Positions 1-18,654 of a stretch of DNA of 19,602 nt are shown piece after piece. Under the pieces are notes generated by a model. It made no database searches and was not told the origin of the DNA. It saw nothing but the letters and a program-made list of their open reading frames with translations. The DNA comes from a virus (taxonomy: Duplodnaviria > Heunggongvirae > Uroviricota > Caudoviricetes): the IMG/VR virus record IMGVR_UViG_648276650_000010, positions 1-19,602 of that record. One strand, 5' to 3'. The translations under genes were made by a program, and so were the position numbers. Position 1 is the stretch's first letter. Every line of letters begins with the position of its first letter.

Positions 1-2400
1 TTACATCTTGCGTCTGTTGCTGTCTTGAACAATAGCCGCGATGTTCTGTTGCTGACGTTTTAATTGTTCAGCAAACCAACGCTGATCAGTAACATTCCCT
101 GAAACGTGAATACTTGCGTCGATTTTTGTTTCGCCTCCTGTTTTCTGATTATCTAAGAAGTCTTTCAAGTCGCCGTTTGTTCTTTCATCAACGACACGTT
201 CGCCACCATCAAGCAGCCATGTCCCTTCTCTTGGAACATTAGAAATACCATCGTGAGCCATACCAGTAAGATTCACTGATTTCATCTGCATGACTTGTCC
301 GATAACTCTTGCATAACTTGAAGCAGCCAGAGCGTAACCTAAAGGACCAGGATATTTTGCCATTGAAGCAGTTGCTGATTCATAAGCGTTTAACATACCG
401 CTTGCGATTGCTGTTCCTTTTTCAACTGCAAACATTGCTTGAGCAGCTTTAGAGTTTTCACCAGAAATACCGGCTATAACTGCACCCATACCAGAAGCAA
501 AACCGTTATACATCTGGAGTTTTGTCTGAATCTCAGTGAAAGTAATTGCTTTCGATTTAACCGCATAAGCTTGCTCAAGACGCTGTTTCTGTTTGAGATA
601 ATCTTCATAAGAAATCAATTGTCCGTCATATAGCTTTTGGTTCTGTTCTTGCATCTTCTGAAATTGTTCTTCCAACATTTTCTGTTGAATAGCCATTTTT
701 TCTTCATCAGTTGCAAAACCGATAGCATCAAGATTTTTAAGATTAGACATATTACCATCGCCAGCAGTCGCTTTAATTGCTTCAAGACGTTGCTGATGGT
801 CTTTCTGAATAGCTTCTAACTGAGAATTATATTCTTTCTGACCGATAAGCGATTGGGCTTTCTTAGCTTCGAGTTGTTCAAGTTGTTGTTGATATACGAT
901 TTCAAGACTCGACGTAATAGCACCGATTTCTTCAGGACTTGCCATAAGAGTTTGTTTGAATTCTTTGTTTGAATTCTCAAAAAGCATTTTACGACGTTGA
1001 TTTGCCTGTGTAGCGCTGATTATTCCTTTCTTTTCAAGTTCGTCGATTGTTTCAACAGCTTCTCTAACTTTACTGACTTGACTAGAAATAGTTCTGCCTT
1101 CTTGACTGAGAATTGCAGCATCAAGACTGGAAAGATTCTGTAACGCTGTCTGACGCTCTTGCATCATCTTATCATAAGCAGCTTTAGCTTCTCTTGCGGC
1201 TTGTTCCTGTAAGCGTTCCTTTTCTTTCTGAGCAGCTTTAGCTTCTCTTGCTATTTTGTCAGCTTCGCGTTTAGCTTTTTCAGCTTCTTTCTTAGCGTCT
1301 TCGGCAGCTAATGCATCTTTTTTTCTTTTCAGATCTGCGGCAGTTTTAGCATTTGCTTGCTGTAAACGAAGATTTTCATCAGCTTTGATTCTTGCTGCGG
1401 CAATATCTTTCTGAAACTTTTCTTCATCTGCAATTGCTTTTCTACGTTTAGCAAAACCCGCATTAGGCATCCATTCGCCCATTTTGTTAACAGTCGCTTC
1501 GGCAGCCCAATCAGAAAGAGCAGCATCAGGACGCAACGTGCTTAATGTTCCCATGAAGTCTAAAAAGTTACTTGCTGTCCAATCTTTATTAGCAATTTCG
1601 AACAGGTCGTTCATTTTCTTAACTAACGGACTCATAACGTTAACAGTTAGATTATCCAGATTGACGGTTAACGTTTTCATGTTTTCGTCGAATTCTTTAT
1701 ATTCTTTTGCTGTTTCGTTTGTGATATCAACAGAACGATTGTTAATAGCGTTTAATGCGTCTTGAGTTGAACCGTATTTTTCAAGAGTTGAAATCAAATG
1801 TGAAGCATCAGAAGCCATTGACTCCATTCCGTTCACGATTTCAGCTTGACTTGCACCAGCAGCTTTCAGGTCATAATAAGTCTGAACAAGCGCTTTAATA
1901 CCGCCTTGGGCATCGTTGACGTATTGTGTGTACTGTTCAAGACCAATACCCCATTCTTTGAGGTCGTCTGCAATACCGCCATGACCTTCTCTGAATGAAT
2001 CGCCAAGTTTATCTAATGTGTCTTTGTTTAAATCTCCGAAACGGTCAATCTCCATACCTGTTTCGCGAAATTCATTTTTAAGTTGTTGCAGATATTCAAC
2101 TGAAAGACCAGTTGATGTAGAGAGTTGATTGAGTTCTCTCGTTTTTTCTAACGCGGTATTAAGAACAGCTACACCTGCACCTGCTGCCATTCCTGCAATC
2201 CCCAGAGCTTGCATACCCTTGGACATTCCTGCAATACCTGAGATTCCGTTGTTGAGATTATTCAACGGTCCTGTCATATTACTAAAAAGTCCATTAGCTA
2301 CTGAATCGAGTTCATTCAGTTTCTTCATGGACTTGTCAATAGAAATTGATAGGCCTTTGTTATCTCCGTTAATCTCGACGTCATAACGTGATTTAGCCAT
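1..2400 (-). CDS. tail tape measure protein, 799 aa
   Basis: ATG at 2400-2398 preceded by a GGTG Shine-Dalgarno; stop TAA at 3-1. Protein is helical with an EAK/Q-rich low-complexity core and Gly/Ala-rich hydrophobic segments near both ends. Lies immediately downstream of the G/T chaperone pair and overlaps the T-frame stop by 8 nt. Assigned from composition and synteny. Confidence 0.75.
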   Translation of the reverse strand: MAKSRYDVEINGDNKGLSISIDKSMKKLNELDSVANGLFSNMTGPLNNLNNGISGIAGMSKGMQALGIAGMAAGAGVAVLNTALEKTRELNQLSTSTGLSVEYLQQLKNEFRETGMEIDRFGDLNKDTLDKLGDSFREGHGGIADDLKEWGIGLEQYTQYVNDAQGGIKALVQTYYDLKAAGASQAEIVNGMESMASDASHLISTLEKYGSTQDALNAINNRSVDITNETAKEYKEFDENMKTLTVNLDNLTVNVMSPLVKKMNDLFEIANKDWTASNFLDFMGTLSTLRPDAALSDWAAEATVNKMGEWMPNAGFAKRRKAIADEEKFQKDIAAARIKADENLRLQQANAKTAADLKRKKDALAAEDAKKEAEKAKREADKIAREAKAAQKEKERLQEQAAREAKAAYDKMMQERQTALQNLSSLDAAILSQEGRTISSQVSKVREAVETIDELEKKGIISATQANQRRKMLFENSNKEFKQTLMASPEEIGAITSSLEIVYQQQLEQLEAKKAQSLIGQKEYNSQLEAIQKDHQQRLEAIKATAGDGNMSNLKNLDAIGFATDEEKMAIQQKMLEEQFQKMQEQNQKLYDGQLISYEDYLKQKQRLEQAYAVKSKAITFTEIQTKLQMYNGFASGMGAVIAGISGENSKAAQAMFAVEKGTAIASGMLNAYESATASMAKYPGPLGYALAASSYARVIGQVMQMKSVNLTGMAHDGISNVPREGTWLLDGGERVVDERTNGDLKDFLDNQKTGGETKIDASIHVSGNVTDQRWFAEQLKRQQQNIAAIVQDSNRRKM
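1177..1251 (-). repeat. 21-nt exact direct repeat (agcagctttagcttctcttgc) at 1177-1197 and 1231-1251 inside the tape measure gene
   Basis: Read directly from the sequence. Copies are 54 nt apart (in frame) and encode the duplicated peptide AREAKAA within the EAK-rich region. Confidence 0.8.
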
Positions 2401-3099
2401 TATTCACCTTTTTTTGTTGTTTCAGTCTAACTTTGTCTAACAGAGCAGGGTCGAACATCGATTCAACAGCTTTCTTGCGTTTAAGCTCCTGTTGCTCTTT
2501 CTCTTTTTCGATTTCCTCTTGAGACTTAAACACAGAATCTTTAATAAGCAGGTGATCTTTCATGTTGAGCTTTTTCCTATATTCTTTTGTAAGATTAGGA
2601 TTATTAGCTTCGATAGTGTGGACCAAACGTGCTTGATAGAAATCGTTATAGACAGGACCTTGAGGTTCAATAAACGAGTCGAAAAACCATAGTTCGTAAT
2701 ACATCATCACGGACATCTGTTGAATTTCATCGTTAGATAATCCGCGACGTAGCATTGTTCTATACTGAAATGATTTAGCCCAGTTCTGTCTTAGTTCTTT
2801 TCCAGAACGTCTGATTTCTTACTGAGAATACTGGCAGTAGAAACAGCACTAGCAAGAGTTGAACGAACAGTGGTATAAAGTTTCTGAACTTGAGCGATTT
2901 CTTTAAAAACAGGAGTTCCGTCTTCGTGTTGAATACAATTCAGAATCATTCGGTCGTTACGTTCTTCTGTGTTTTCATTTTTGAAATAGAATTCACCGAA
3001 TTCAGATACGGTCATAGGACGAGCATAGAATTTAAAGCCGTTGATTTCTACTGGTTCGCGAGAAGGCGAAAGACTTGCTAACATTTCATCGAAATTCAT
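2393..3099 (-). CDS. predicted G-T fusion chaperone made by -1 programmed ribosomal frameshift
   Basis: The -1 frame is open from a TAA at 2821-2819 down to the stop at 2395-2393, overlapping the last ~8 codons of the G frame. The T-frame stop overlaps the tape measure start by 8 nt. The frameshift itself is inferred; the slippery site is non-canonical. Confidence 0.5.
2791..3099 (-). CDS. tail assembly chaperone, gpG-like, 102 aa
   Basis: ATG at 3099-3097 with an AAGGGA SD-like element; stop TAA at 2793-2791. Sits directly upstream of the tape measure gene, and a -1 frame ORF overlaps its 3' end (classic G/GT arrangement). N-terminal segment VEINGFKFYARPMTVSEFGEF resembles the lambda gpG N-terminus as I recall it. 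Confidence 0.65.
   Translation of the reverse strand: MNFDEMLASLSPSREPVEINGFKFYARPMTVSEFGEFYFKNENTEERNDRMILNCIQHEDGTPVFKEIAQVQKLYTTVRSTLASAVSTASILSKKSDVLEKN
2794..2821 (-). promoter_or_regulatory. candidate -1 frameshift window; best heptamer GGAAAAG at 2797-2803
   Basis: This is the only stretch where the G frame and the T frame are both open. Minus-strand sequence is AGT AAG AAA TCA GAC GTT CTG GAA AAG AAC TAA. It contains the A-AAG lysine slippery motif but not a canonical X-XXY-YYZ heptamer. Confidence 0.35.
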
Positions 3100-3133
3100 T
3101 TTTGTTTCCCTTTGTTGAGTTTTCTTTTATTTA

Positions 3134-3162
3134 TGAAAAAGGGAGCGCGAGGCTCCCTTTTG
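3134..3162 (-). terminator. intrinsic terminator (bidirectional-looking) after the 105-aa gene
   Basis: Stem GGGAGC (3141-3146) pairs with GCTCCC (3152-3157) around a 5-nt loop. Flanked by AAAAA (3136-3140) and TTTT (3158-3161), so it is followed by a U-tract on either strand. Located between the stop at 3163 and the G start at 3099. Confidence 0.65.
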
Positions 3163-3480
3163 TTATTTCCATTGAAAGAAATATCCGTACATTCTGAAAC
3201 CTTTGTGGATATATTCAATCATTCCTAAGTTCTTCGCTTCGGTCTCAAAAAATGGACCTTGCAGTCGAACTGTCTGTCCTAATTTGAAATGACAATTAGG
3301 TTTTTTCTTCTGTGTTGAAACAATAAAAACGTTCTTATCGTTGAACAGATATTTTTTAATTCGCTTATCTTTGATGTGTTCGCAACCGTAAGGAACAGTC
3401 ATTGACTCGGGATTAATCTCGTTAACGTAGATGTCGGCAAGTTCGTCTAATCTGTAAGTATCAAAATCGTGAATGTTCAT
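3163..3480 (-). CDS. hypothetical protein, 105 aa
   Basis: ATG at 3480-3478 with an AGGAGA SD; stop TAA at 3165-3163; followed by a terminator. No recognisable motif. Confidence 0.55.
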   Translation of the reverse strand: MNIHDFDTYRLDELADIYVNEINPESMTVPYGCEHIKDKRIKKYLFNDKNVFIVSTQKKKPNCHFKLGQTVRLQGPFFETEAKNLGMIEYIHKGFRMYGYFFQWK

Positions 3481-3497
3481 TTGTTCTCCTTTTGACT

Positions 3498-4040
3498 TTA
3501 TTTAGTACCCGCAACACGCTTAACGGTTTTGAATATATCGTCAGAGATTTGATTCCATGAACCCAGAGTTTTTCTTCTGTGTTGATTTTTCTTGAATACA
3601 GCAATTAAACGACGGTCTTGCTTTTTAACGTTAGTTTTAATGAGGATCGTTCGAGTTACGCCATCTTTTTTTTGCTTGACAGCTTCAAGATTATTTCTTG
3701 ATTTCAAGTTAGGAATGTTACCGAATTTGTTCTTTGAACCTCTTACACCAGTTGGAACAAACTTGTTAATTCCTTTGTTATCATCAATTAACGGAGCAAG
3801 ATAATCAGCCTGCTTGTCTTTGATGAATATTCTATTTCGTGACCCGTTCTGATCGTATCTGAAACTGAAACCTACTGCGTTCTTAGTGAAATTAACTGGT
3901 CCATCGACTCGTCTGTTGATTTTTCTTTGCAACTCAACAGAAGCGAGTTTAGACGCTTTGGTTACTTTCTTACTGAACACGTCAGATTCTTTGATTCGCC
4001 ATTTTTCAAGGTCTTTCATAACATCTTTTGCTTTTGCCAT
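3498..4040 (-). CDS. hypothetical strongly basic (Lys/Arg-rich) protein, 180 aa
   Basis: ATG at 4040-4038 overlaps the stop of the upstream 65-aa ORF (TAATG coupling). Composition suggests nucleic-acid binding; too basic to be a typical tail tube protein. Function unknown. Confidence 0.6.
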   Translation of the reverse strand: MAKAKDVMKDLEKWRIKESDVFSKKVTKASKLASVELQRKINRRVDGPVNFTKNAVGFSFRYDQNGSRNRIFIKDKQADYLAPLIDDNKGINKFVPTGVRGSKNKFGNIPNLKSRNNLEAVKQKKDGVTRTILIKTNVKKQDRRLIAVFKKNQHRRKTLGSWNQISDDIFKTVKRVAGTK

Positions 4041-4237
4041 TAGTTCACTCCTGACATCAGAAGCGTCCCAAATGTTTTTATCTGTTCTTCGCTGATAAGA
4101 ATCATTTTAGGTGCTTTAATATCGAAAGCTTGCAGAACAGGAACAGCAACAGTGTTATAAGTTATAGTAACGAGAAATAGAACAATAAGATAATCTTTAG
4201 CGTGTTTTGCCAATGCTTGGAGATATTTCATTTTCAT
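4040..4237 (-). CDS. small membrane protein, 65 aa, one predicted TM helix
   Basis: ATG at 4237-4235 with a GGTG SD 5 nt upstream. Hydrophobic segment YLIVLFLVTITYNTVAVPVL. Overlaps the 3' end of the endonuclease gene by 41 nt and is coupled to the downstream 180-aa gene. Confidence 0.45.
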   Translation of the reverse strand: MKMKYLQALAKHAKDYLIVLFLVTITYNTVAVPVLQAFDIKAPKMILISEEQIKTFGTLLMSGVN

Positions 4238-4673
4238 ATTTCACCTTTATTTGGTTTGAGTAGACTTTTTCAAGCTCCTTTTTCGTTTTAAGGTTTGAAC
4301 CTGTAATAGCTTTCATCTCAGAAAGATTTTTTCGAGAGAACGCCTTCTTTAAATCAGGAATAAGTTGTGGATGCGTAGGATTGTCTGAGTAGTCTTTTTC
4401 AAGATACTGAACAAGATTCTTCAAAAACTCGATGTAGTCAATTTTCCCATCGAGACCCGAACGTTTAAACTGATGTTTTATTCTGCCCTCTAGGACGTTT
4501 GCTTGAGCGATTAATAATCCTCTGCATCTGCCTGCGTTAGAGCCTGTTAATATATGGTCATGGTCAAGATGGGCTTTATTAACTTCATGAATCTTTATGC
4601 CAGTTAAAGCACAAAGACCTTTTTGCTTTTGAAAGAGTTCTTGCTTATAAATCGGAATCTCTTTTCTTTTCAT
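4197..4673 (-). CDS. T4 endonuclease VII (gp49)-like nuclease, 158 aa, with degenerate zinc-binding site
   Basis: ATG at 4673-4671 with a GAGG SD; ATGA overlap with the upstream 94-aa gene. The segment HLDHDHILTGSNAGRCRGLLIAQANVLEGRIKHQFKRSGLDGKIDYIEFLKNLVQYLEKDY aligns closely with my recollection of T4 endo VII (HLDHDHELNGPKAGKVRGLLCNLCNAAEGQMKHKFNRSGL...). The catalytic Asp/His/Asn/Glu positions appear retained, but three of the four Cys Zn ligands are replaced (by T, I, A). Confidence 0.8.
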   Translation of the reverse strand: MKRKEIPIYKQELFQKQKGLCALTGIKIHEVNKAHLDHDHILTGSNAGRCRGLLIAQANVLEGRIKHQFKRSGLDGKIDYIEFLKNLVQYLEKDYSDNPTHPQLIPDLKKAFSRKNLSEMKAITGSNLKTKKELEKVYSNQIKVKYENEISPSIGKTR

Positions 4674-4954
4674 TTTCCTCTTAGAACTGCTAGGTCGATA
4701 TCTAGCTTTGCTGTTCTTCCTTCTAAATTCTTCAAATCAGATTTGACCTCTCGAAATTCATCCTGTTGTCGTGTTATATCGCTTATAAGCGAAGCATCTT
4801 TTGCGTCATTAACGGCTATGCTTTTTTCGATGTCTGAGAAACGTTTCTCAAGGTCAATTCGTTTTTCATTGTTTGATTTAATTTCGGCATAAACCCAAGC
4901 CAAGAAACCTCCTAGAGCACCCAAGATGGAAATGATCAGTGCTATATCGACCAT
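4670..4954 (-). CDS. membrane-anchored coiled-coil protein, 94 aa
   Basis: ATG at 4954-4952 with two AAGGAG-type elements upstream. N-terminal hydrophobic helix (IALIISILGALGGFLAWVYA) followed by a charged heptad-like region. Function unknown; i-spanin-like or exclusion-like topology. Confidence 0.6.
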   Translation of the reverse strand: MVDIALIISILGALGGFLAWVYAEIKSNNEKRIDLEKRFSDIEKSIAVNDAKDASLISDITRQQDEFREVKSDLKNLEGRTAKLDIDLAVLRGK

Positions 4955-4999
4955 CTTGAATCTCCTTTTTAAAAGACCTCCTTGTCTTTATTTAGAACG

Positions 5000-7900
5000 T
5001 TATTGTTGTTTACTGATAAAGTAAACTGCTCTTGCTGCGGTCGCATGATTCAAGTCAGCACCGTAACTCAAATCAACAGCTTGTCCCGCATAGATAATGC
5101 CTGTACCACCGTTTGAACCACTCATTGCACTGGTAACTGTTCTTACGATTTCTTGACCGTTCGACATATTAATCCATGCAGTTCCGTAGCCCCAAGCACC
5201 ACCGGAATAAGTTCTGCCTGAAATCGAAAGGTTTGGAATAGAAATTACTCTGTTCCAGTTAACAGCAGGAATATGAACTGTTGTCCACGGATCTATATGA
5301 CCCATTTTGATAACGTCACCTTCAATTCTGTCAGCGTATACAGTTCCTGTGAAATAACCTGAACCGCCTCTGATTTCACCTGCGAAATAACCAGAATCTG
5401 CTTGAATGTTACCTCTGATATTAACGTTTTGGAAAGAAGCCCAACCGTCTTTTCTGATTGTCCAACCTTGAGTACCACCGGAAGGGAACCAGTTATCAGA
5501 AGATATTTCATAAGCAATCTGTGCTGAACCGATCTGAGCATTACCAATTTTCGCAGTAGTAATCGCACCGTTTTCAATCTTCGCGTTGTTAATAGCACCG
5601 TTTTGAATCTTAGCGTTGTTAATAGAAGCATCTGCAATCTGTGCTGAACCGATAGAAGCATTACGAATCATTGCAGAATCCATATAAACTCTGTTATCAG
5701 CGACCATAAACGGAGCAACAGCACCCGCAGGAGTATTGTTATTCGTTATAGCGATTTTATCAGCGTTAAAAACAATACTAGACTGTTTTGAACCGTCAGG
5801 ATTCTTATTAGCCAGCATACTGATACCAGCAACAACACCGTCGGCATTAGTCTGAACTGCCCATTTGCTATTAATCGTTCCTGTTAAGTCGTCAACGCTT
5901 GCTTTTGATTCTTGACTAACTGTTGCAATAGCTGTGTTTGTTTCAGCTTTCAATTGATTAATTGAACTTGCGGTTGCTTGTCTATCATCAGCTTGAGTTT
6001 TTTCAACTTTCGTAATAGCCGAGTTAAGTTTTCCATCAAAGTTAGATTCTTGAATACTGATAGCCTGATTGATAGCGCCATTAGTTTCATTAGTAATCTG
6101 AGTATGAAGTTCGGTGTTTTTCGTCGTGATAGTCTGATTTAATTCAGTAGTAACTTTTTGCTCGGATGCTGTAACTTTCGTATCAGTGTATTTGTTAGCG
6201 AGGTCTAATGCTTCATCGATAGCACCATCAACACGTTTATCCAAATCAAGCAAATCGTTTAACTGTTCTTTCATATCGTCAGTCCACGGAATATCCCATT
6301 TCATATCGATAAACTTCGATTCTGACCAAGTAATCTGGTCTTGTCCGAATACGTCATACCAAGCTGAACGAACATAGAATTGACCATCTTCTAATGGAAA
6401 ATTATCTAAGAACGGACTTGAACTTGAATAAACGTGAACAATTTCATTAAAACTCTGGTCTTTCGCAATATGAACGATTGTGCCTTTGAAGTCAGGAACT
6501 TCAGGCTTATTATCGCGTGGGTCATTCCAAGAGCACATCAGCATTCCAGGACCATTCGAAGCTGTGAAACCTTGAATAGCAGGAGCTTGATTGTTCTTAA
6601 CAGTAATAACAGCAGGATCTGACTTCATACCAGCGTGACCGTATGCAGTAACAGAAACTTTCAATTCACGACTCAGACCATTACCCAAGTTCATATTAAA
6701 GTCATATACAAAACCTAAGTCTTTAGTCTTGTAAATTACAGGACGCTGACCTTCAATTTTGATTTCGTAATATTGAAAAACTTCACCGAATGTCTGTAAC
6801 GTGTCGTCAACATAGAATTTCTGTGCGCTCTGGTCGTCCCAGGCGAATTCAAATTGAGTCTTGTTAGTGGTGTATTGATTTTCAACTGCGTTCACTAGGT
6901 GCAGTCCTGTAACGACTGGTAAGTTATACATAACCTCAGGGTTAACGTTATTGACATAAACCCAATCTGAACGATACACAACACCAGAAGCACAAACACG
7001 AATATCAAATTTCTGATTAGGGTCAAGACTCATAATCAAGAAATAATCGCCTGATGTGAAACCTGCTTGAATCCAAGAGTTCTTACCAGCAAGACTATAC
7101 TGAATATAATAACCTGCGCGATTATAATCAGGTTCAGACGTCCATTGAACTTTCAGAGTTCTTCCTAAAGCTGTTTCAGCAACTGCTTTAACTGTCAGAT
7201 TCTTAGGAGCAATCAGAACAGATTTATTAGGAATGTTGCTTCCTGTGTTATCAGGGTCTTTCGCGTAGTCAAGATTGGTATAAACTTCTTCGATATATTC
7301 AGAAGCAGTAATAGTAACGATACCAGCAGCACCTTTATTCATCGAACGATCGATATTAGTAATACGCCATAATGAATTCACAAGTTCCAGTTCAGAGAAA
7401 TTAACTCTGATAACATCCCAGACCTGTGCGGTATAAGCATCAGCAGTTGAAAAACTAATAACTTGCTTTAACAGAGATTTGTTACGTTCGATTGAAGCAA
7501 TTTTATCCAACTGAGATTTTGATTTCACGAATCTGTAACTGATATCTTTAGCGATAATACGTTTATCTTTCGCGATTGTTCCATCATTTGTTACGTCAGA
7601 CGGATAACGCAGAACTTGGTCAGAATAGTCAATCGACGGATCTTGATATTTCACGTTCAGAGTATTGTAATAATTCTCAGAACCGCCATCGTTTAAGCTA
7701 ACAGTACCAGCGTTAATATTATCTTCGTTGAAGTCATATTGAACAACATCAGGTCCATCGATTCTGCATGTTACTTTACCGAAAGTCTCTGTGATAATAC
7801 CGTTAAATGCACCTGCAAGCTGAGTTAAGTTTTCTTTGAATGAACCGTTCGGGTCAGTTGCACCATCAGAAAATAAACTGTTCAGTTTTGCATATCGAGC

Positions 7901-8689
7901 AGCTTCTTTAAAACTATCAAGGTCGATTTTATCAATCTGAATTCCAAGACCGTATCTATCATTTGTTAGATAATCAACAATCTGACTCGGACCGTTGTTC
8001 GAGGAAACGCGTTCTCCTGTGTTCAGATCTGTAATCAAACGTCCTCTAACGTCAACAGATACTTGACTGTTAGGTTGCAGGATATCAGCTTGGTTTTGAA
8101 GGTCTGAGTTACGTTTGCGCATAACAACACAACAAGCAGCGATGTTATTACCAGTAGCAGAATCAGGCCAGCCAGCATCTGAATTTCCTAGATATTTCTG
8201 AGCAAGAGTAAAAACGTGACCGTATGGCTTACCAGTTGAGAATTCAACTTCAACATATTGCTGATATTCAGCAGCGATTGAACCTTTCGGAAGAACACCG
8301 TCTTTATAAACGCCATCAAGTAAGATTTTCTGATTATCCATATAAAGGTTTTTGAAGCTATCAACTTCACCTTCACAGATTGCAAAGATCTGAACCAAAT
8401 ATGTCGTATCAACGCCAACAGCTTTCCAAACGTTAATCGTACCTGTACGCTGTTCACCATAGATAATAGGAATAACACTTGATGGATCTGACGTTGTTCC
8501 TAATGTCGTTGCTGTGTCTGTGCTGTTAAATCGGGGAACGTTCTGCGCCATCTGAGTTGACATCAAAGCAGAAACAGCAGCAACAGCGACACCAATACCA
8601 ATTGCCAAAGCAAGAGCAGCACCCGCAGCGTAAGCAGCAGCAGCCGCGGAAGCACCTGCGATAATTGCACCAATAGCTACAATAGCCAT
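5000..8689 (-). CDS. lambda J-like tail tip / host specificity protein, 1229 aa, with hydrophobic N-terminal extension
   Basis: ATG at 8689-8687 overlaps the upstream stop (TAATG). The region PIIYGEQRTGTINVWK...YLVQIFAICEGEV matches the conserved N-terminal motif of J-type tip proteins; the C-terminal region (FMVADNRVYMDSAMIRNASIG..., NIRGNIQADSGYFAGEIRGG...) resembles the lambda J C-terminal receptor-binding region as I recall it. Confidence 0.75.
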   Translation of the reverse strand: MAIVAIGAIIAGASAAAAAYAAGAALALAIGIGVAVAAVSALMSTQMAQNVPRFNSTDTATTLGTTSDPSSVIPIIYGEQRTGTINVWKAVGVDTTYLVQIFAICEGEVDSFKNLYMDNQKILLDGVYKDGVLPKGSIAAEYQQYVEVEFSTGKPYGHVFTLAQKYLGNSDAGWPDSATGNNIAACCVVMRKRNSDLQNQADILQPNSQVSVDVRGRLITDLNTGERVSSNNGPSQIVDYLTNDRYGLGIQIDKIDLDSFKEAARYAKLNSLFSDGATDPNGSFKENLTQLAGAFNGIITETFGKVTCRIDGPDVVQYDFNEDNINAGTVSLNDGGSENYYNTLNVKYQDPSIDYSDQVLRYPSDVTNDGTIAKDKRIIAKDISYRFVKSKSQLDKIASIERNKSLLKQVISFSTADAYTAQVWDVIRVNFSELELVNSLWRITNIDRSMNKGAAGIVTITASEYIEEVYTNLDYAKDPDNTGSNIPNKSVLIAPKNLTVKAVAETALGRTLKVQWTSEPDYNRAGYYIQYSLAGKNSWIQAGFTSGDYFLIMSLDPNQKFDIRVCASGVVYRSDWVYVNNVNPEVMYNLPVVTGLHLVNAVENQYTTNKTQFEFAWDDQSAQKFYVDDTLQTFGEVFQYYEIKIEGQRPVIYKTKDLGFVYDFNMNLGNGLSRELKVSVTAYGHAGMKSDPAVITVKNNQAPAIQGFTASNGPGMLMCSWNDPRDNKPEVPDFKGTIVHIAKDQSFNEIVHVYSSSSPFLDNFPLEDGQFYVRSAWYDVFGQDQITWSESKFIDMKWDIPWTDDMKEQLNDLLDLDKRVDGAIDEALDLANKYTDTKVTASEQKVTTELNQTITTKNTELHTQITNETNGAINQAISIQESNFDGKLNSAITKVEKTQADDRQATASSINQLKAETNTAIATVSQESKASVDDLTGTINSKWAVQTNADGVVAGISMLANKNPDGSKQSSIVFNADKIAITNNNTPAGAVAPFMVADNRVYMDSAMIRNASIGSAQIADASINNAKIQNGAINNAKIENGAITTAKIGNAQIGSAQIAYEISSDNWFPSGGTQGWTIRKDGWASFQNVNIRGNIQADSGYFAGEIRGGSGYFTGTVYADRIEGDVIKMGHIDPWTTVHIPAVNWNRVISIPNLSISGRTYSGGAWGYGTAWINMSNGQEIVRTVTSAMSGSNGGTGIIYAGQAVDLSYGADLNHATAARAVYFISKQQ
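5514..5653 (-). repeat. intragenic tandem and direct repeats in the J-like gene
   Basis: Exact 20-nt direct repeat gcaatctgtgctgaaccgat at 5514-5533 and 5634-5653 (120 nt apart, in frame), with 30-nt-period near-repeats at 5561-5620 between them. Encodes a periodic motif (IGSAQIA ... NNAKIQNGAINNAKIENGAITTAKIGNAQ). Confidence 0.8.
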
Positions 8690-9105
8690 TATTTTCTCCT
8701 GTTAAAAATTAATTCAAAATTAAAATCGTTGACGTTTATCAGTTGATATTTATTTTCATGTTCAACTAATGCTCTATTATTAAAAACGATAGATGCAACG
8801 TAATAGACACGGTTTTTATGTTTTTTCTTAATTAAGATAACCGAGCCTGTTTCTATAGTTTCTGATTTCTCAAGATGCGTTTCACACGCTTCGAGAACGT
8901 TATTAAAACCAGTTAGCTCTTTGCAAATCTTGAGACCTTCAGGAATACTCGTGTATTTGTCTTTTAATTTGTCTGTGTATTCAGTAGCACAAACAAGGTC
9001 GATATATTCAGCAACAAGGATATTACAGTCGTTTTGACCGAAAACGTGTTGCTGATTGATATAGCGGTTAAGTAATTTTGATAAGTCAGCTTGAAATTTA
9101 AACAT
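8689..9105 (-). CDS. hypothetical Cys/His-containing protein, 138 aa, translationally coupled to the J-like gene
   Basis: ATG at 9105-9103 with a GAGGTGA SD; stop overlaps the J start. Motif GQNDCNILVAEY plus downstream His residues could fit a papain-like fold (speculative). Position suggests a tail tip assembly role. Confidence 0.5.
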   Translation of the reverse strand: MFKFQADLSKLLNRYINQQHVFGQNDCNILVAEYIDLVCATEYTDKLKDKYTSIPEGLKICKELTGFNNVLEACETHLEKSETIETGSVILIKKKHKNRVYYVASIVFNNRALVEHENKYQLINVNDFNFELIFNRRK

Positions 9106-9132
9106 GTTTCACCTCTGACTTTATTTAGAGCC

Positions 9133-9161
9133 AAAAAAAGACCCCTTGCGGAGTCTTTTTA
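9133..9161 (-). terminator. intrinsic terminator after the 158-aa gene
   Basis: On the minus strand: GACUCC-GCAA-GGGGUC (6-bp stem with one U-G wobble, GNRA loop) followed by seven U. Stem at 9140-9155, A-run at 9133-9139 on plus. Begins 7 nt after the stop at 9163. Confidence 0.7.
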
Positions 9162-9162
9162 A

Positions 9163-9639
9163 TTAATCACTTGATGTCAAATCAACAACACCAGAAACAA
9201 CAGGACCACCATCAACACTCAGTGTCATTGTCAGACCTTGAACTTCTGATTCACCGCCATTATGAACAGCGCTTGACAAGAAGCCGTTATAAACTTTTGC
9301 AACACCCAGTTTTTTAGTAGCATCAATCCAATAAACGATTTTAAACTGACCACGTTTACCATCTTCCGCAAGCTTAATCAGAACATCATGAACGCTTTCT
9401 GGAATATAGTTAACGGTCAAGTCGATATCAGGAACAGAGCCACGACCAACCAGTTTACGGGAGTATTTGTGAGAGAAGTTAGGAGCTGTAATAACTTCGC
9501 GTTCAATACCCGTAGAAGGGAATGCACCAGTTTCAGGAATTTCAACAAACTTTTCTGAATTCAGATCGGTGTTTGCAATTTCTGAGTTATAGAACACACT
9601 GACGTAAGAGCCAGCAAAAATATCAAATTTGTCTGCCAT
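9163..9639 (-). CDS. hypothetical acidic beta-rich protein, 158 aa, probable virion structural protein
   Basis: ATG at 9639-9637 with an AGGAAA SD; stop TAA at 9165-9163. No TM segment or signal peptide. Bracketed by terminator-like hairpins on both sides (stand-alone transcription unit). Fold and function not assignable from sequence alone. Confidence 0.55.
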   Translation of the reverse strand: MADKFDIFAGSYVSVFYNSEIANTDLNSEKFVEIPETGAFPSTGIEREVITAPNFSHKYSRKLVGRGSVPDIDLTVNYIPESVHDVLIKLAEDGKRGQFKIVYWIDATKKLGVAKVYNGFLSSAVHNGGESEVQGLTMTLSVDGGPVVSGVVDLTSSD

Positions 9640-9680
9640 TTTTAATTTCCTATTTGAGTTAATATAGTTTATTTAGCAAA

Positions 9681-9699
9681 GGGGATTTCTCCCCTTTTT
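9681..9699. terminator. terminator-like hairpin directly after the tail fiber stop
   Basis: GGGGA (9681-9685) pairs with TCCCC (9690-9694) around a 4-nt loop. On plus it is followed by TTTTT (9695-9699); on the minus strand only by UUU, so minus-strand termination is probably partial. Confidence 0.5.
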
Positions 9700-9700
9700 G

Positions 9701-12700
9701 TTATTTAGCTTCAAGTTCTTTAACGCGAGCACTTAATTCCTTGATAGCATTAACCAGCAACGCGTTTACAGCAGCAGAGTTAACACCAAGAATTTCGTCA
9801 GGTCCGAAAGAACTAACAGCTTCTGGTAATACTTCTTTCAGTTCTTGAGCAATAATACCTGCTTCACGAACTTCGAATGAATATTCAGTTTTGACTAAAT
9901 CAGATTTCTTATCGTATACGTAACCAGTAAGTTTCTCGACTTTATCAACTGCGTTTTCAATTTCTTCAAAGTTCGATTTCAGACGTTTATCAGAAGTGCT
10001 AACCCATTGGATCGCATTTGCTGTTCCATTACCGAGGAATAGATAGTCTGCACCACCAATGTGAAGTGCAGCCTCGGGAGCAGAACTACCCGGATTATAA
10101 ATGTCCATCGCAGCACCGTATTCTGTGCCCCAATGAACATGTTTCCAGATATTAATACATTTATCACGAGTCTGAGCTTCAACAATCATTCCCGCAGGAC
10201 GATCACGCCACGCTGACCACTGCGGCCAACCGTCAACGACACCTTGAATCATCGCATTGCTTGCCCCGGTTCTAACGTTTCCAACATAAACACCGCGAGA
10301 CTCATTATGGGTGTTAATCGTAATTGACCGATCAATTGTCAAACCAGCTGTGTTAAAGGTTGCGATTTGAATACCATTAGTAAAAATGCTTAAGTTTCCG
10401 TCCGTAACTTGTCGAATACCTGTATCGTTATCACCAAACGCGATTGAGTTTCCACCTAGTACGTTGTCCGTGTTAATACCAAAACTTGTTAAACGATTTG
10501 TTTCAACAGAAGGAGTATTAATTTTTCCAGGAACAGCAAAACGACCATCGATATCAAATTCATAATTAGCCATTTTACCGAACGTCGATTCTTCTTTCGT
10601 CCCAACACGAAGAATTCCTTTGCCCCATGAATTAGCTGGTCCTCTAATAGTTCCTAATTCAACAACAGTAGAGAATCCGTGTCCTACGGAAACAGAGTTC
10701 ATCGAATATCCGGGATAATAATCACTTTCACCAGCAACTGCTCCGAAGTTAATCTGCATAGGAGCATTTTGTCTCCATTGATTAGCGTAAGCATGATCAT
10801 TGGTTGCTGCCCATCTTGCACCATCAATTTGAATTGTATTATGCTGAATATCCATCGCGGTATTAGTACCAGTCTGAACCGTCACGGATCCGTTAGTTCT
10901 AAGAGTAACACCAGATGACGTAGAGAAATCATTTCTCATATTCTGAGACCAGACAATATCGAGATTCTCACTTGTCTTGCCAAGAATCCAGGTATTATTG
11001 CGACCGTCCATATTGCCAGACATATAACTTGCCTGATTCGACGCAGGAATATTCAACTGAATAGCATTAGATTCGCCGTTGACAGAAACACCACTTGCAA
11101 GATTCAATCGACCATTGGTGTTTAATGAACCCATCCAATATTCAGGAGTATCACCATGAAACCAACATATAGAGTTATCCAGCCTATCGTCAGGATGATT
11201 AGCCATTGCCAACTCATGATAAATGGATCCAGCACCAACGGCTCTAACTTTTCTTAAATGATTTGATTGTTGCTCAGGAGTGTTCCAGTCGGGTAAGCTT
11301 TCCGAGTCATACCATCCGTAAGGCTTATTATTATAAATCGTTTTATAGAAACTTGCAGGGCCAGCAACACCAAGACCTTCTTTAGTATCAATATAAGTTC
11401 TGCCTGAACCTCTCAGATAATGATTATATTTTCCACCATTAACTAATCCGAAATAAGTCGTGGCGTCACCAATGTTATTACCGTCGGTTGTCGTATCGAT
11501 ATTAATTAATGAATAACCTTCAGGAGCCATCAGATTCGAATCACCATCATCACTTCTGAAACGGAAATGAGTTTTTCTATTAAAGTAGTTTTCAGATCCT
11601 GCAATAGAAGCTGTTACAACGTTATTTGAATAGAAGTTTAACCATCCGTCTTCTCTCCATTTAAAACCAGTGTCGGAATCACCAATCGCGATAGAGTTTA
11701 AACCCAGTGAATTTCCAACGGCAAAGTTGCTTGCAACGGACATTAAAGGAGTTGTTACTGCATCAGTGATTCTAGCTTGACCTGAAATATCAATTGACAT
11801 TCCTCTGCCTGTTTTTCCCCAAGTCATGGTCATTAGATCTAATGCGTCGGTTCCTTCGTTAGCATCACGACGAAATAACAGTCGATCATCCGTATCCGTT
11901 GCGTATGCAATTTGATGAATAGTCTTTGAAGTTCTGCCGTGGTTTTCAATACTCAGAACATCACCGTTATTACCAGCAGGTGTAACTTTCAAAGTTCCTG
12001 CGTATACATTACCAGCAGCATGAACAGAAGGAACAGTTAAGTCGCCAGTCATCGTGTCGCCAGCTTTATTAACTTTGGTGTCAATCATGTCTTTCAGAGT
12101 CTGATTATCAACAGTCAAACGGTCATTAACTGCTTTAATCTTTTCGTCAGCATCAGCTTTATTCGCATCAACTTTCGTATTAATAGCCGTGTCGTTCTGG
12201 TCAACTTTTGAATTCAGATTATCAACGCGAGTGTTAATAGCAGCGTCGTTAGCATCAACTTTCTGTTCGAGTTTCGTCAGGTCAGCACTTGAACCTGTTT
12301 GAACTTTGCTGATTTCAGAATCAACGTAATCTTTACGCGTAGCGCTATCAGGAGCAACAGGAGCAGCAGGCAAAGATAACTGACCATTACCGTTAAGCAC
12401 GAAGTCAGAACTCTCTCCTGTACCTTTTCCTTTCGCTACCGTAACACGAAGTTCACCTTTAGAGTCTGTCTGAGCAGGAGAACTAATACGTGCTTTTGCT
12501 TTGTCGTGTTCATCAGCAAAAACAATATCGCTTTTATCAAGATTTTTTAAAGTCAGATTAGAATCGGATTCAATATCACTTGCTTTAATTTTTCCAGTAA
12601 AGGTCTGACCGCCTTCAACAACAGCATCAGCACCATTACCGATGTTAATAACAGCGTCACCGAATTTAGTAAAAATCTTTTTATCGGCTAAGTTAATAGC

Positions 12701-12784
12701 GATTTCACCATCAAGCATGTTTTTCGCTTCTGGCTTTCTTCCGGCGACGTCTGTTCTATAATGTTTAACTTTATTATTTGCCAT
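9701..12784 (-). CDS. tail fiber protein, 1027 aa, with C-terminal intramolecular chaperone (peptidase S74-type) domain
   Basis: ATG at 12784-12782. N-terminal fibrous repeats (VDxNDxAINTxVD) and a DTMTGDLTV motif typical of phage fibers. C-terminal WVSTS-DKRLKSNFEEIE...YVYDKK...EAGIIAQELKEVLPEAV...NAIKELSARVKELE matches the auto-cleaving chaperone domain seen in endosialidase-type tailspikes and L-shaped fibers. Confidence 0.8.
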   Translation of the reverse strand: MANNKVKHYRTDVAGRKPEAKNMLDGEIAINLADKKIFTKFGDAVINIGNGADAVVEGGQTFTGKIKASDIESDSNLTLKNLDKSDIVFADEHDKAKARISSPAQTDSKGELRVTVAKGKGTGESSDFVLNGNGQLSLPAAPVAPDSATRKDYVDSEISKVQTGSSADLTKLEQKVDANDAAINTRVDNLNSKVDQNDTAINTKVDANKADADEKIKAVNDRLTVDNQTLKDMIDTKVNKAGDTMTGDLTVPSVHAAGNVYAGTLKVTPAGNNGDVLSIENHGRTSKTIHQIAYATDTDDRLLFRRDANEGTDALDLMTMTWGKTGRGMSIDISGQARITDAVTTPLMSVASNFAVGNSLGLNSIAIGDSDTGFKWREDGWLNFYSNNVVTASIAGSENYFNRKTHFRFRSDDGDSNLMAPEGYSLINIDTTTDGNNIGDATTYFGLVNGGKYNHYLRGSGRTYIDTKEGLGVAGPASFYKTIYNNKPYGWYDSESLPDWNTPEQQSNHLRKVRAVGAGSIYHELAMANHPDDRLDNSICWFHGDTPEYWMGSLNTNGRLNLASGVSVNGESNAIQLNIPASNQASYMSGNMDGRNNTWILGKTSENLDIVWSQNMRNDFSTSSGVTLRTNGSVTVQTGTNTAMDIQHNTIQIDGARWAATNDHAYANQWRQNAPMQINFGAVAGESDYYPGYSMNSVSVGHGFSTVVELGTIRGPANSWGKGILRVGTKEESTFGKMANYEFDIDGRFAVPGKINTPSVETNRLTSFGINTDNVLGGNSIAFGDNDTGIRQVTDGNLSIFTNGIQIATFNTAGLTIDRSITINTHNESRGVYVGNVRTGASNAMIQGVVDGWPQWSAWRDRPAGMIVEAQTRDKCINIWKHVHWGTEYGAAMDIYNPGSSAPEAALHIGGADYLFLGNGTANAIQWVSTSDKRLKSNFEEIENAVDKVEKLTGYVYDKKSDLVKTEYSFEVREAGIIAQELKEVLPEAVSSFGPDEILGVNSAAVNALLVNAIKELSARVKELEAK

Positions 12785-12796
12785 TTTCTTTATCCG

Positions 12797-13822
12797 TTAA
12801 AATACTCCTGCGTCTAAGGTTTCTCCTAACGCTACACAATTAATCTCTAATGGCGTTGGTTTATTACTTGGAGAATAGACTTCTTTGCCTTTGACCTTGA
12901 CAGAAGTTGAGTTAATTTCATTACTATTTAGAGCCAAGATTTCACCTTGTGGCGCAGAAATCTTTTTACGAACGTTCAGATATTCCTGAATAGTCAAAGA
13001 TCCTTTGAGTTCTCCACCAGTAATAGGCAAAGCATTAATATCTTCAGGAGTTGGACGTTCAAGTTCTGTATAGACTTTGACCCACGGAGATTCAGTAACA
13101 GTTTCACCGCTTTGTTGTTTGTTTCTGATTCTGATGCTTGGATTACCGACTGACGAACCAATAAGCTCCCAACCTTGACCATCAGGATGCTGAATAGCCA
13201 TAGCAGACGTGCCAGAGTTATAAGGGTTATCGCTGTTTGTTGCATCGACTGTTACACATCTGTTACCAGTTAATAATCCTAAGTCTTTAACGCCTGCGAT
13301 TTCTTCTGTACCAGCACCAATACCATAATCGCCAACGTTTAACGGAACTGAGAATTCAGCAAAACCTGTAAACAACTGACCATCAGGAGAAAGATTAAAA
13401 GTTGTTGTAACGACTGAGTTAGCCGAACCTGATGTTTCTTTCTTCGTTACATAAGCATTAAAAATATGATAAAGACCAGCATCATTATCTTTCTTTGTTT
13501 CTCCATCGATAACATAAAGACTTCTGAATCTAAGGAGTTTCTTTTCCATAAGAGCTTCATCAAGCAACTGATAAACTGGGTCAGAACTGTCTTCAAATAA
13601 GCTTATTGAAGTGTCGTTAATTGTTACGTCACCTGAAAGTTTCGTTGTGAAATCGGTTCTGTAATCTTCTAGTGTCTGAACTTCTTTTCTAAATCCGATA
13701 ACAGGGAATGCAGCCAGTTTATCAGTGCTTACATAACCTGGGTCGTTATATCCTGGGATTTCAACGATTAGCGGATTAACTGAAACTCTGACGTTATTTC
13801 CTACAAAAATATCGTTTGTCAT
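12797..13822 (-). CDS. major tail protein, gpV-like, with C-terminal Ig-like extension, 341 aa
   Basis: ATG at 13822-13820; stop TAA at 12799-12797. Position is right after the gpU-like gene. The segment NDTSISLFEDSSDPVYQLLDEA...LLRFRSLYVIDG resembles the lambda V pattern [23 protein letters not shown]...AYKIRFPNG as I recall it; C-terminal ~100 aa is beta-rich and Ig-like. Confidence 0.6.
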   Translation of the reverse strand: MTNDIFVGNNVRVSVNPLIVEIPGYNDPGYVSTDKLAAFPVIGFRKEVQTLEDYRTDFTTKLSGDVTINDTSISLFEDSSDPVYQLLDEALMEKKLLRFRSLYVIDGETKKDNDAGLYHIFNAYVTKKETSGSANSVVTTTFNLSPDGQLFTGFAEFSVPLNVGDYGIGAGTEEIAGVKDLGLLTGNRCVTVDATNSDNPYNSGTSAMAIQHPDGQGWELIGSSVGNPSIRIRNKQQSGETVTESPWVKVYTELERPTPEDINALPITGGELKGSLTIQEYLNVRKKISAPQGEILALNSNEINSTSVKVKGKEVYSPSNKPTPLEINCVALGETLDAGVF

Positions 13823-13829
13823 TTTAGTC

Positions 13830-14228
13830 TCACATTAAGTATTCGAAAGTTAAAATTATTTGTGCGCTAACATGACCATTTGATGCTTCACTATCATAAT
13901 CAGTGAAGCTCGAACTTGGATAAATCTTATCGATTTTAAATGGGATAAGTTTTTCATGATTAGCTTTAATAGAAATTAAGTCGTAAACGGCTTTGTGAAC
14001 GCCTGTTTCGCTTTTCTCTGAGAAAATATCAATCGTAATACTAAGAACACTTGCAAGTTTCGATTGCAAACCGATTCGCGTATATTCTTCTGTCATTCCT
14101 GGAATCATTACTTGAACAGGTTCTTTAACACCAGTTGTGAAAGCGTTTTTGACGTATTTCAGATTAAGTTCTTTAACGATTATTTCTTCCAGAGCGCGTT
14201 TAATTCCTAAACGTGGCAGATTAGTCAT
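13830..14228 (-). CDS. tail terminator protein, gpU-like, 133 aa
   Basis: I place the start at the internal ATG at 14228-14226, which overlaps the upstream stop by 8 nt; the ORF-track start at 14306 would overlap the upstream gene by 86 nt. C-terminus DYDSEASNGHVSAQIILTFEYLM resembles the lambda gpU C-terminus (DY..DDAG..SADLTYVITYEM) as recalled. Confidence 0.6.
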   Translation of the reverse strand: MTNLPRLGIKRALEEIIVKELNLKYVKNAFTTGVKEPVQVMIPGMTEEYTRIGLQSKLASVLSITIDIFSEKSETGVHKAVYDLISIKANHEKLIPFKIDKIYPSSSFTDYDSEASNGHVSAQIILTFEYLM

Positions 14229-14517
14229 AGAATGATGTCTCCTGTTCGCCTTTAAATGCCAGATAACAATTAGCAAGTCCTGAACCATCATTAACAAGAT
14301 ACGCAATGGTATACAGAATCTCGTTTAATAGAACTTCATCTTCTTGCTTAACTTTATTGATATCAGCGGTTATATAGATTGTCTCGCTTACTTGTCCGTT
14401 ATCGTTGTTAATCTCAATTTCAACAATACCGAGTTCATCAGAATCGTTAATTTTGATTTTCTGTCCGAAACGAGTTAAGAAAGACTGTTTTTGTTTTTCT
14501 GAATATGGAAAAATCAT
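14221..14517 (-). CDS. head-tail joining (neck) protein, 98 aa
   Basis: ATG at 14517-14515 with an AAGGAGA SD; first gene after the capsid terminator. Small and acidic, in the position of a head completion/connector protein. No specific family assignable. Confidence 0.5.
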   Translation of the reverse strand: MIFPYSEKQKQSFLTRFGQKIKINDSDELGIVEIEINNDNGQVSETIYITADINKVKQEDEVLLNEILYTIAYLVNDGSGLANCYLAFKGEQETSFYD

Positions 14518-14552
14518 GTTGTCTCCTTTTTATTATATTTAGTCCAGAAACG

Positions 14553-14576
14553 AAAAAAGGACTCCCGAAGGAGTCC
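14553..14576 (-). terminator. strong intrinsic terminator after the major capsid gene
   Basis: On the minus strand: GGACUCC-UUCG-GGAGUCC (perfect 7-bp stem, UUCG tetraloop; stem 14559-14576) followed by UUUUUU (14553-14558 on plus). Lies about 50 nt downstream of the capsid stop. Confidence 0.85.
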
Positions 14577-14597
14577 TCTGATTATTCAGCAGTTTCA

Positions 14598-14627
14598 GCT
14601 TTCGCTTTCGCTTTTGCTTTTGCTTTT
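14598..14627. repeat. five tandem hexamers (GCTTTC x2, GCTTTT x3 on plus; AAAAGC/GAAAGC on the mRNA) immediately 3' of the capsid stop
   Basis: Read directly from the sequence. Starts 1 nt after the stop codon (14629-14631) and ends before the terminator hairpin. Confidence 0.8.
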
Positions 14628-14628
14628 C

Positions 14629-16533: not shown

Positions 16534-16548
16534 TACCAGTCCTCTGTT

Positions 16549-16580
16549 GGAGCGTCTTTCGACGCTCTTTGTTTTTCTGA
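16549..16580. promoter_or_regulatory. stable stem-loop in the portal-capsid intergenic region, terminator-like only in plus orientation
   Basis: GAGCGTC (16550-16556), loop TTTC, GACGCTC (16561-16567), followed on plus by TTTGTTTTT. On the minus-strand mRNA it forms a GAAA-loop hairpin 17 nt upstream of the capsid SD with no U-tract after it. Confidence 0.45.
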
Positions 16581-16592
16581 ATGTATTTAGTG

Positions 16593-18634: not shown

Positions 18635-18654
18635 TGAGTTCTCCTTTCTTATAT

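Follow-up and report, generated by a model that had tools for sequence, protein, structure and literature searches.

In the viral DNA analysed here, the tail module of a siphovirus-type element is broken into movable cassettes, and its odd gene order is a true rearrangement rather than an annotation error. The window, which is the whole stretch of 19,602 nucleotides under analysis (positions 1 to 19,602 of the IMG/VR record IMGVR_UViG_648276650_000010, Caudoviricetes), is the late structural region of a prophage-like element of approximately 33–34 kb, whose large serine recombinase directs its integration between the E. coli genes ldtB and ybiT. Within the family of this element, orthologous tail genes occur in at least three orders. 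It appears fairly probable that the tail genes are organized as short cassettes carrying T4-late-type motifs, the order of which has been changed by recombination at repeated boundaries and/or by recombinase-mediated inversion.

Gene identities were assigned by Pfam and PHROG profile searches, and the genes were read in the direction of transcription; every credible gene of the window lies on the minus strand. The unusual tail order reported in the initial annotation is present on this strand, but some of the gene identities on which it was based need correction. The 158-aa protein (9163..9639), previously regarded as the product of a mere stand-alone gene, matches phrog_158, ‘major tail protein’, at 5e-16 and, weakly, the lambda tube family of Pfam (Phage_TTP_12), and in relatives with the canonical order its orthologue directly precedes the gene for the G-type chaperone. 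The 341-aa protein (12797..13822), which had been considered gpV-like, does have a tube fold, but it matches phrog_158 at only 1e-5 and is not the tube orthologue. In every relative the orthologue of the 158-aa protein is better conserved than that of the 341-aa protein. The 158-aa gene, like the capsid gene, has a hairpin and a motif upstream and a hairpin downstream, and the 341-aa gene starts just 7 nt after the neighbouring gene. Because of its stronger profile match, its conservation, its own hairpins and motif and its position before G, the 158-aa protein is likely to be the major tube protein, with the tube (Hcp-like) fold expected of a canonical lambda/HK97-type tail module. The gpU-like assignment proposed earlier received no support from Pfam or PHROG profiles.

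The separation of approximately 9.7 kb between the 341-aa gene and G is real by gene coordinates. The tube is indeed split from the chaperones, but since the 158-aa gene itself encodes a tube-family protein, the true distance from tube to G is 6.06 kb: the tube gene stops at 9163, G starts at 3099, and the interval holds eight genes, among them those encoding the DUF6950 protein, the J-like tip protein, a 94-aa protein, endonuclease VII, and 65-, 180- and 105-aa proteins. The gene for the 102-aa G-type tail assembly chaperone (2791..3099; phrog_344, 1e-6; weak match to Phage_TAC_13) is overlapped by the T reading frame (2393..2818; a 120-aa open reading frame (ORF) at 2755-2393, open from 2818), which lies in the -1 frame relative to G and overlaps the start of the gene for the 799-aa tape measure protein (TMP; 1..2400; phrog_13674, 4e-70). 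G and, by a predicted -1 frameshift, G-T are thus encoded just upstream of the TMP, as in the canonical module. The putative slip site at the end of G reads G GAA AAG in type B loci, including the window, and A AAA AAG in type A loci (the order types are defined below). The TMP gene is complete, its stop codon occupying window positions 1-3.

In a canonical module, the distal tail protein (Dit) and the hub or tip genes would directly follow the TMP, and the initial annotation had suggested looking for them there. Instead, a terminator hairpin and an att site lie directly beyond the TMP stop codon, just outside the window, and host ldtB comes next. The exact TMP sequence is present on many contigs, and at 8 of the 8 places shown the host genes (ldtB-ybiR-mntR-mntS-opgE-ompX-rhtA-dps-glnHPQ) begin approximately 300 bp beyond it. 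The 187-aa Dit (phrog_1302, 2.5e-22) and a 215-aa hub N-domain protein (PF09931/DUF2163; score 30.1 bits, cut-off 26; L016:44301-44948, L numbers denoting the loci fetched for comparison) are encoded outside the window, on the opposite strand and at the other end of the prophage, between the recombinase gene and a gene for T4-type lysozyme, approximately 30 kb away when the element is integrated.

The J-like tip protein remains in the window. The 1229-aa protein (5000..8689) had been described as J-like, and it is the central tip protein (J/pb3-like) rather than a side fibre, matching Phage_Tail_Tip (83 bits, 2e-23) and phrog_31, ‘central tail fiber J’ (6e-61); its N-terminal half aligns with the adjoining T5-like hub and straight-fibre genes, and its match to Phage-tail_3 (PF13550) reaches 19.8 bits, under the cut-off of 23. 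The gene encoding the 138-aa DUF6950 protein (8689..9105; PF22262, 1.6e-10) lies immediately upstream of J in all order types, and its product occupies the place of the g14 peptidase in RcGTA-type tips. Judged by these profile matches, the tail genes form a complete siphovirus set with a tip of the RcGTA/phiJL001 type, comprising the tube, G, G-T (-1 frameshift), TMP, Dit, DUF2163 hub, DUF6950 protein and J-like tip, together with a tube-fold paralogue and a gp37-like side fibre. The tip resembles those of RcGTA and phiJL001 in its Dit-like protein, its PF09931/DUF2163 hub, a small protein encoded before the large J-like tip and the TP901-1-like tube fold; it differs in having DUF6950 in place of a recognizable peptidase. 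Furthermore, the lineage of the window splits the tip set over two distant loci on opposite strands, and the contiguous arrangement Dit-hub-small protein-J after the TMP, absent from this lineage, is found in type A relatives.

Whole-genome synteny comparison with relatives, which had been called for in the initial annotation, was performed by tblastn of all element proteins against the fetched loci, and it revealed three gene orders. Type A reads tube-G-T-TMP-Dit-hub-DUF6950-J-(endoVII)-p180-p105 and is represented by the first 27 kb of PQ671644 (L001), L025-L027, L108-L112 and the Atlantibacter prophages L095/L096, the last two being the only loci yielded by a scan of a one-genome-per-species contig collection. 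Type B, to which the window, L004, L005 and L016-L024 belong, reads tube-DUF6950-J-p94-endoVII-p65-p180-p105-G-T-TMP-attP-int-p245-(hub, Dit inverted)-lysozyme, and remains unchanged down to 44% identity in the TMP and 53% in J. Type C reads tube-DUF6950-J-...-p105, followed by inverted int-attP-hub-Dit and then by lysozyme-G-T-TMP-TerS; it is contiguous in L105 and found as prophage ends in L104, L006 and L007. The outgroup Vibrio phage V6Aob has the canonical order, and since type A shares its layout, type A is considered ancestral. Type A relatives share the gene set of the window at 30-65% protein identity, including the tube paralogue, the gp37-like fibre, endonuclease VII, p180/p105, the T4-type lysozyme and NNTAAATA motifs, but they retain the canonical order, whereas in the lineage of the window G-T-TMP stands at the end and Dit-hub is inverted at the other end of the prophage. 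The rearrangement of the tail module, offered initially as one of two readings, is therefore borne out: orthologous genes that are in canonical order in the relatives and in V6Aob are rearranged in the lineage of the window. To convert type A into type B, at least one block transposition and one inversion are required.

One of the type A sequences requires comment. PQ671644 (‘Escherichia phage DCP80’; L001/L113/L115) is a 141-kb record labelled Gaprivervirus that contains a type A element of approximately 27 kb together with T4-like segments; rIIA, the exonuclease subunits and spackle are duplicated and inverted, and the structural genes are scrambled. A T4-like replicon carrying a siphovirus module was considered as another reading of the record, but two entities present in one lysate seem rather to have been co-assembled into a chimera. 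DCP80 was dropped as a bona fide relative owing to the T4 capsid, soc and gp37 genes and the duplicated inverted T4 segments in the record, and therefore type A rests on the other loci.

Of 5426 complete E. coli genomes, 6 carry the element; other Enterobacteriaceae contain related copies. The two prophages examined in full, those of E. coli 2021CK-01361 (L016) and PSS-15 (L017), are both insertions of approximately 33–34 kb between ldtB and ybiT, with the TMP at one end and a large serine recombinase of approximately 500 aa at the other. Comparison of the two places the junctions approximately 65 nt past the TMP stop codon and just upstream of the ybiT start codon, with an att common core of approximately GTGAYGTT. 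The virion genes carried by the element include TerS, TerL, the portal, a protease-capsid fusion and the full tail and fibre set.

The type B layout appears to be held by selection rather than to represent debris, since the ratio of non-synonymous to synonymous substitution rates (dN/dS) is low and the frameshift site in G is conserved. Between two type B prophages, dN/dS ranges from 0.06 to 0.37 for G, TMP, Dit, hub and nine further genes; the value for T was not computable, dS being saturated.

GC-rich hairpins, a number of them capped by UUCG, GAAA or GCAA loops, occupy the spacers of the window and are followed by a TAAATA-core motif that mostly reads CTAAATA(A). Each cassette has a stable hairpin and/or a NNTAAATA motif upstream, and on the coding (minus) strand of the window NNTAAATA sites are located at 3128-3135, 3499-3506, 4989-4996, 9122-9129, 9670-9677, 14536-14543, 16584-16591 and 18652-18659. 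All 12 copies of TAAATA are on the coding strand, with none on the other, and so are all 9 matches to CTAAATA (3.5 expected over both strands). Of 18 gene starts, 8 have the motif 16-50 nt upstream; in 5000 shuffles, the number of starts with a motif within 60 nt averaged 1.4 and never exceeded 6. Sigma-70-like sites in the window are not enriched (36 as against 46.7 expected), nor do terminator counts exceed those of the shuffles; generic counts being at shuffle level, just the positions of the hairpins are informative. The NNTAAATA motif is also present in L017, L105, L108 and L111. In the PSS-15 prophage it stands before the same genes and, on the other strand, before Dit; the lysozyme and Dit genes diverge from a 48-nt spacer that is perfectly palindromic and contains GCTAAATAAG twice, in outward-facing orientation (L017 45355-45402; L016 43693-43737). 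Across types A, B and C, most of the examined G-T-TMP cassettes have [CTG]ATAAATA or CTAAATA upstream; L025 has the variant CATAAACA upstream of G, and L022 is without a motif in the region shown.

The consensus of T4 late promoters, a -10 element that acts without a -35 element, is TATAAATA; AATAAATA is the commonest variant, an A(-13) variant is described, and the consensus of Aeromonas phage Aeh1 is a/gC-TAAATA (PMC2988020). The motifs of the window match the Aeh1 and A(-13) variants of T4-family late promoters and presumably act as promoters. The resemblance to T4-family late units extends to the short stable hairpins, some with UUCG or GNRA loops, and to the placement of the TAAATA core approximately 16-50 nt before late gene starts on either strand. 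Composite promoter-terminator (PeSL) motifs have been implicated in module shuffling in T4-like phages (PMC2839356, PMC4122927), and the element resembles these systems in that genes are bracketed by hairpin/motif elements and breakpoints fall at them. However, PeSLs combine a terminator with an early promoter in hyperplastic regions of lytic myophages, whereas here a late-type motif is found in an integrated 33-kb siphovirus-like prophage.

At spacer resolution, rather than to the nucleotide, the breakpoints among types A, B and C mostly fall in spacers that contain a hairpin and/or the motif (tube/G, tube/DUF6950, p105/G, GH/G, GH/Dit and TMP/Dit). In the window, the tube/DUF6950 spacer (9106..9162), which is the first rearrangement junction, contains a hairpin and then TCTAAATA, and the p105/G spacer (3100..3162), the second, contains a 10-bp hairpin at 3137-3161 and then CATAAATA at 3135-3128. 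The type C GH/G and GH/Dit spacers have the motif without a hairpin, and the type A hub/DUF6950 boundary has no spacer at all. These arrangements may be explained if the tail cassettes are independent late units, each with its own promoter; not being bound by a common transcript, such units would be free to change their order. From the ancestral colinear order of type A, type B would have arisen by movement of the G-T-TMP cassette to the far 3' end, beside attP, and by inversion of the Dit-hub cassette and its placement across attP-int beside the lysozyme gene, and in type C the G-T-TMP cassette would have been placed after the lysozyme gene. The variants might have been generated by recombination at the repeated hairpin/promoter boundaries, perhaps with recombinase-mediated inversion close to attP.

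Four other explanations of the order may be weighed against recombination between cassettes. That the order is an artefact of assembly or of provirus trimming could be suspected from the window beginning exactly at the TMP stop codon, where IMG/VR contigs are trimmed, but the identical type B order is present in the closed chromosomes NZ_CP107720, NZ_AP027709, NZ_CP062211 and others and in NCBI, ENA and Logan assemblies; since it is seen in independent complete genomes and in diverged relatives, such an artefact is scarcely credible. Hardly more plausible is the proposal, put forward in the initial annotation as the scenario that would overturn the rearrangement, that the family assignments are wrong, the real tube, Dit and tip genes being located beyond the window and canonically ordered there. 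Dit and hub genes do lie outside the window, but they are inverted at the opposite end of the prophage; what comes after the TMP is host DNA, and the window itself contains both the tube orthologue and the J-like tip. A decaying cryptic prophage, the tail genes of which were scrambled in the absence of selection on order or function, deserves more serious consideration, although it too is improbable. The element is rare among complete E. coli genomes, no replication or repressor genes are recognized in it, ISEc68 is inserted in J and in TerL of E. coli 2021CK-01361, an insertion sequence interrupts p94 of CP154587, and in L007 an insertion of approximately 1.2 kb (11222-12425), containing two reverse-strand ORFs of 274 and 87 aa, splits the J-like gene. 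On the other hand, the type B order is identical in lineages the TMP and J of which are only 44-53% identical, the relocated genes show the low dN/dS values given above, and the -1 frameshift signal and promoter-like motifs are conserved. Moreover, all ORFs are intact in PSS-15, apart from a TIR gene split by IS2, and they are intact in many contigs; the GG771846 contig is one with an uninterrupted copy.

The strongest competitor, albeit one that we consider rather unlikely, attributes the rearrangements to the large serine recombinase of the element acting on pseudo-att sites, by inversion or by excision and reinsertion, without involvement of the promoter/terminator boundaries. Two of the three relocated blocks abut attP-int, int is inverted between types B and C, the neighbouring Dit-hub block is inverted with respect to type A, and the recombinase also matches the DNA invertase family phrog_125. 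However, the tube/DUF6950 junction is far from attP, and a repeat search of the window found no att-like repeats at the junctions. Recombination at the hairpin/motif boundaries is preferred, but a number of observations speak against it. Boundary repeats within the window extend over only approximately 24 nt at 79% identity, which is thin for homologous recombination, and no long repeats were found at the window junctions. Among the loci compared, no intermediates between types A, B and C were present, and at least 2-3 events are needed to interconvert them. Promoter function is predicted from sequence only; no gp55/gp33-like factor was matched by PHROG or Pfam among the proteins of the window or of the rest of the L016/L017 prophage; and no virion of this prophage family is reported in the phage collection. 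The insertion sequences in J, TerL and p94 count on the same side.

The T4-like features raise the further question of whether the element relies on T4-like phages. No match to a replication initiator, helicase, primase or CI/Cro-type repressor was obtained by Pfam or PHROG for the element proteins (window and L016/L017 prophage), and since no replication, repressor or late-sigma gene is recognized, dependence on T4-like helpers is possible. It is further suggested by the NNTAAATA motif and the tetraloop hairpins, by the T4-type lysozyme, which is 52% identical to the product of T4-like gene e, by endonuclease VII, by the gp37-like fibre, by the gp36-type domain in homologues of the 341-aa protein, and by the homing endonuclease of PSS-15. 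At 14548-14594, a stretch of 47 nt over the UUCG-loop hairpin after the capsid gene shares approximately 92% identity with the terminator that follows soc in T4-like phages, YUEEL01 among them. The low G+C content of the element (36-44%; also put at approximately 38-40%) and the co-assembly of a type A copy with a scrambled T4-like genome in PQ671644 are hints in the same direction. In such a relationship the element would borrow the T4-like replisome and the late transcription dependent on gp55, gp33 and the clamp. It is thus conceivable, though on present indications doubtful, that the family consists of integrative elements with a whole siphovirus-type virion that hitch-hike on T4-like phages as their satellites. 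Known satellites (P4-like, PICI, cfPICI and PLE) lack most virion genes and draw on the structural proteins of a helper, whereas this element encodes TerS, TerL, the portal, the protease-capsid and a full tail and fibre set. Literature searches yielded nothing relevant on T4-dependent satellites or on non-canonical TMP positions. If the motifs do prove to be gp55-type promoters in an element devoid of gp55, they would define a new kind of helper-dependent element.

The order tube-chaperones-TMP-Dit-tip is among the most conserved syntenies of tailed phages and is routinely used for positional annotation. In P2-like myophages, the baseplate and fibre genes V-W-J-I-H-G precede the sheath/tube-chaperone-TMP cluster FI-FII-E-E'-T; here, too, tip and fibre genes are transcribed before the chaperones and TMP. 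The P2 layout therefore already implies that assembly needs no colinear order. Nevertheless, in P2 the tube stays beside the chaperones and TMP and the layout is fixed within the group, whereas in the element the tube is separated and the order varies within one family. Since this family has orthologues in at least three orders under purifying selection, tail gene order is not required for assembly, and annotation based on position can go astray, the 341-aa and 158-aa genes being cases in point. Hairpin/late-promoter-like units would tie the plasticity of the genome to its regulatory architecture, as has been proposed for PeSLs.

The 341-aa tube-fold paralogue and the 1027-aa side fibre (9701..12784) may be functionally linked. 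The C-terminal part of the 341-aa protein matches tail-fibre families of PHROG, and some homologues contain the T4 gp36 domain PF03903. The side fibre has a C-terminal S74 intramolecular chaperone (Peptidase_S74, 2e-14; phrog_1699, 1e-114), and its best phage matches are gp37 proteins of T4-like phages at 35-40% identity; in the spacer between its gene and that of the tube (9640..9700), a GC hairpin is followed by GCTAAATA. The 341-aa protein could be a tube-fold ring protein and a candidate anchor for the gp37-like fibre. Candidate analogues are the minor tube-fold special-ring proteins T5 p140 (7qg9_I) and Sf11 gp24 ‘neck whiskers’ (9occ_B), although these are without the gp36-like fibre segment of the 341-aa protein. 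Directly upstream of the 341-aa gene in all relatives, in the head-tail/terminator position, is a 132-aa ORF (13830..14228; 158 aa if started from the TTG at 14306), for which Pfam and PHROG searches gave no match.

The accessory genes between J and G comprise a 94-aa ORF with a hydrophobic N-terminus (p94, 4670..4954; weak coiled-coil profile matches; TCTAAATA upstream at 4989-4996), a T4 gp49-like endonuclease VII (4197..4673; PF02945, 1e-10; phrog_423, 4e-36), a 65-aa protein (p65) encoded between endonuclease VII and the 180-aa gene, a conserved 180-aa protein that is possibly a minor tail or neck protein (p180, 3498..4040; phrog_1924, ‘minor tail protein’, 1.5e-4) and a conserved 105-aa protein (p105, 3163..3480; ACTAAATA upstream). 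The p180 gene always adjoins that of p105, and in L025/L108 it is inverted together with the lysozyme gene. In L009, p94 is truncated at its end by an inserted DDE transposase gene.

The non-structural portion of the element, approximately 12 kb, encodes TerS, the recombinase, several uncharacterized proteins and strain-variable cargo. The cargo of 2021CK-01361 (L016 36064-42854) includes an Ec67-family retron reverse transcriptase/endonuclease and a TIR-domain protein, and that of PSS-15 (L017 34946-36480) a GntR regulator, a YadA-anchor protein and a homing endonuclease. Identity with the 34-kb element of retron Ec67 near 19 min was considered and dropped, as a review places Ec67 in a 186-related prophage. 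An Rfam search of the prophage returned no known RNA family, and megablast of the window against phage genomes gave only the DCP80 capsid-gene match and the 47-nt hairpin matches, with no close sequenced phage. In PSS-15, a 1.2-kb region without annotated genes separates two divergent genes (L017 38333-39513); it contains TTGCGATGCACT three times and a pair of 31-nt direct repeats, and is possibly an origin or control region. In L005, which is 89% identical, the TMP is separated from the end of the element by a convergent 118-aa ORF (18640-18996) that the lineage of the window lacks.

Upstream of the 132-aa ORF, the window encodes the C-terminal part of a lambda-type TerL, a 164-aa head-tail joining protein, a lambda-family portal, a 634-aa protease-scaffold-capsid fusion and a 98-aa protein with no family match in Pfam or PHROG. 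Within the 634-aa capsid ORF, ACTAAATA is found at 16038-16045, followed 35 nt on by an AAAGG Shine-Dalgarno-like site and an in-frame ATG at 16000-16002 (codon 178). This arrangement suggests a nested scaffold-capsid product that starts at codon 178 and is without the protease domain, and the motif is found again at a comparable place within the L017 and L108 capsid ORFs.

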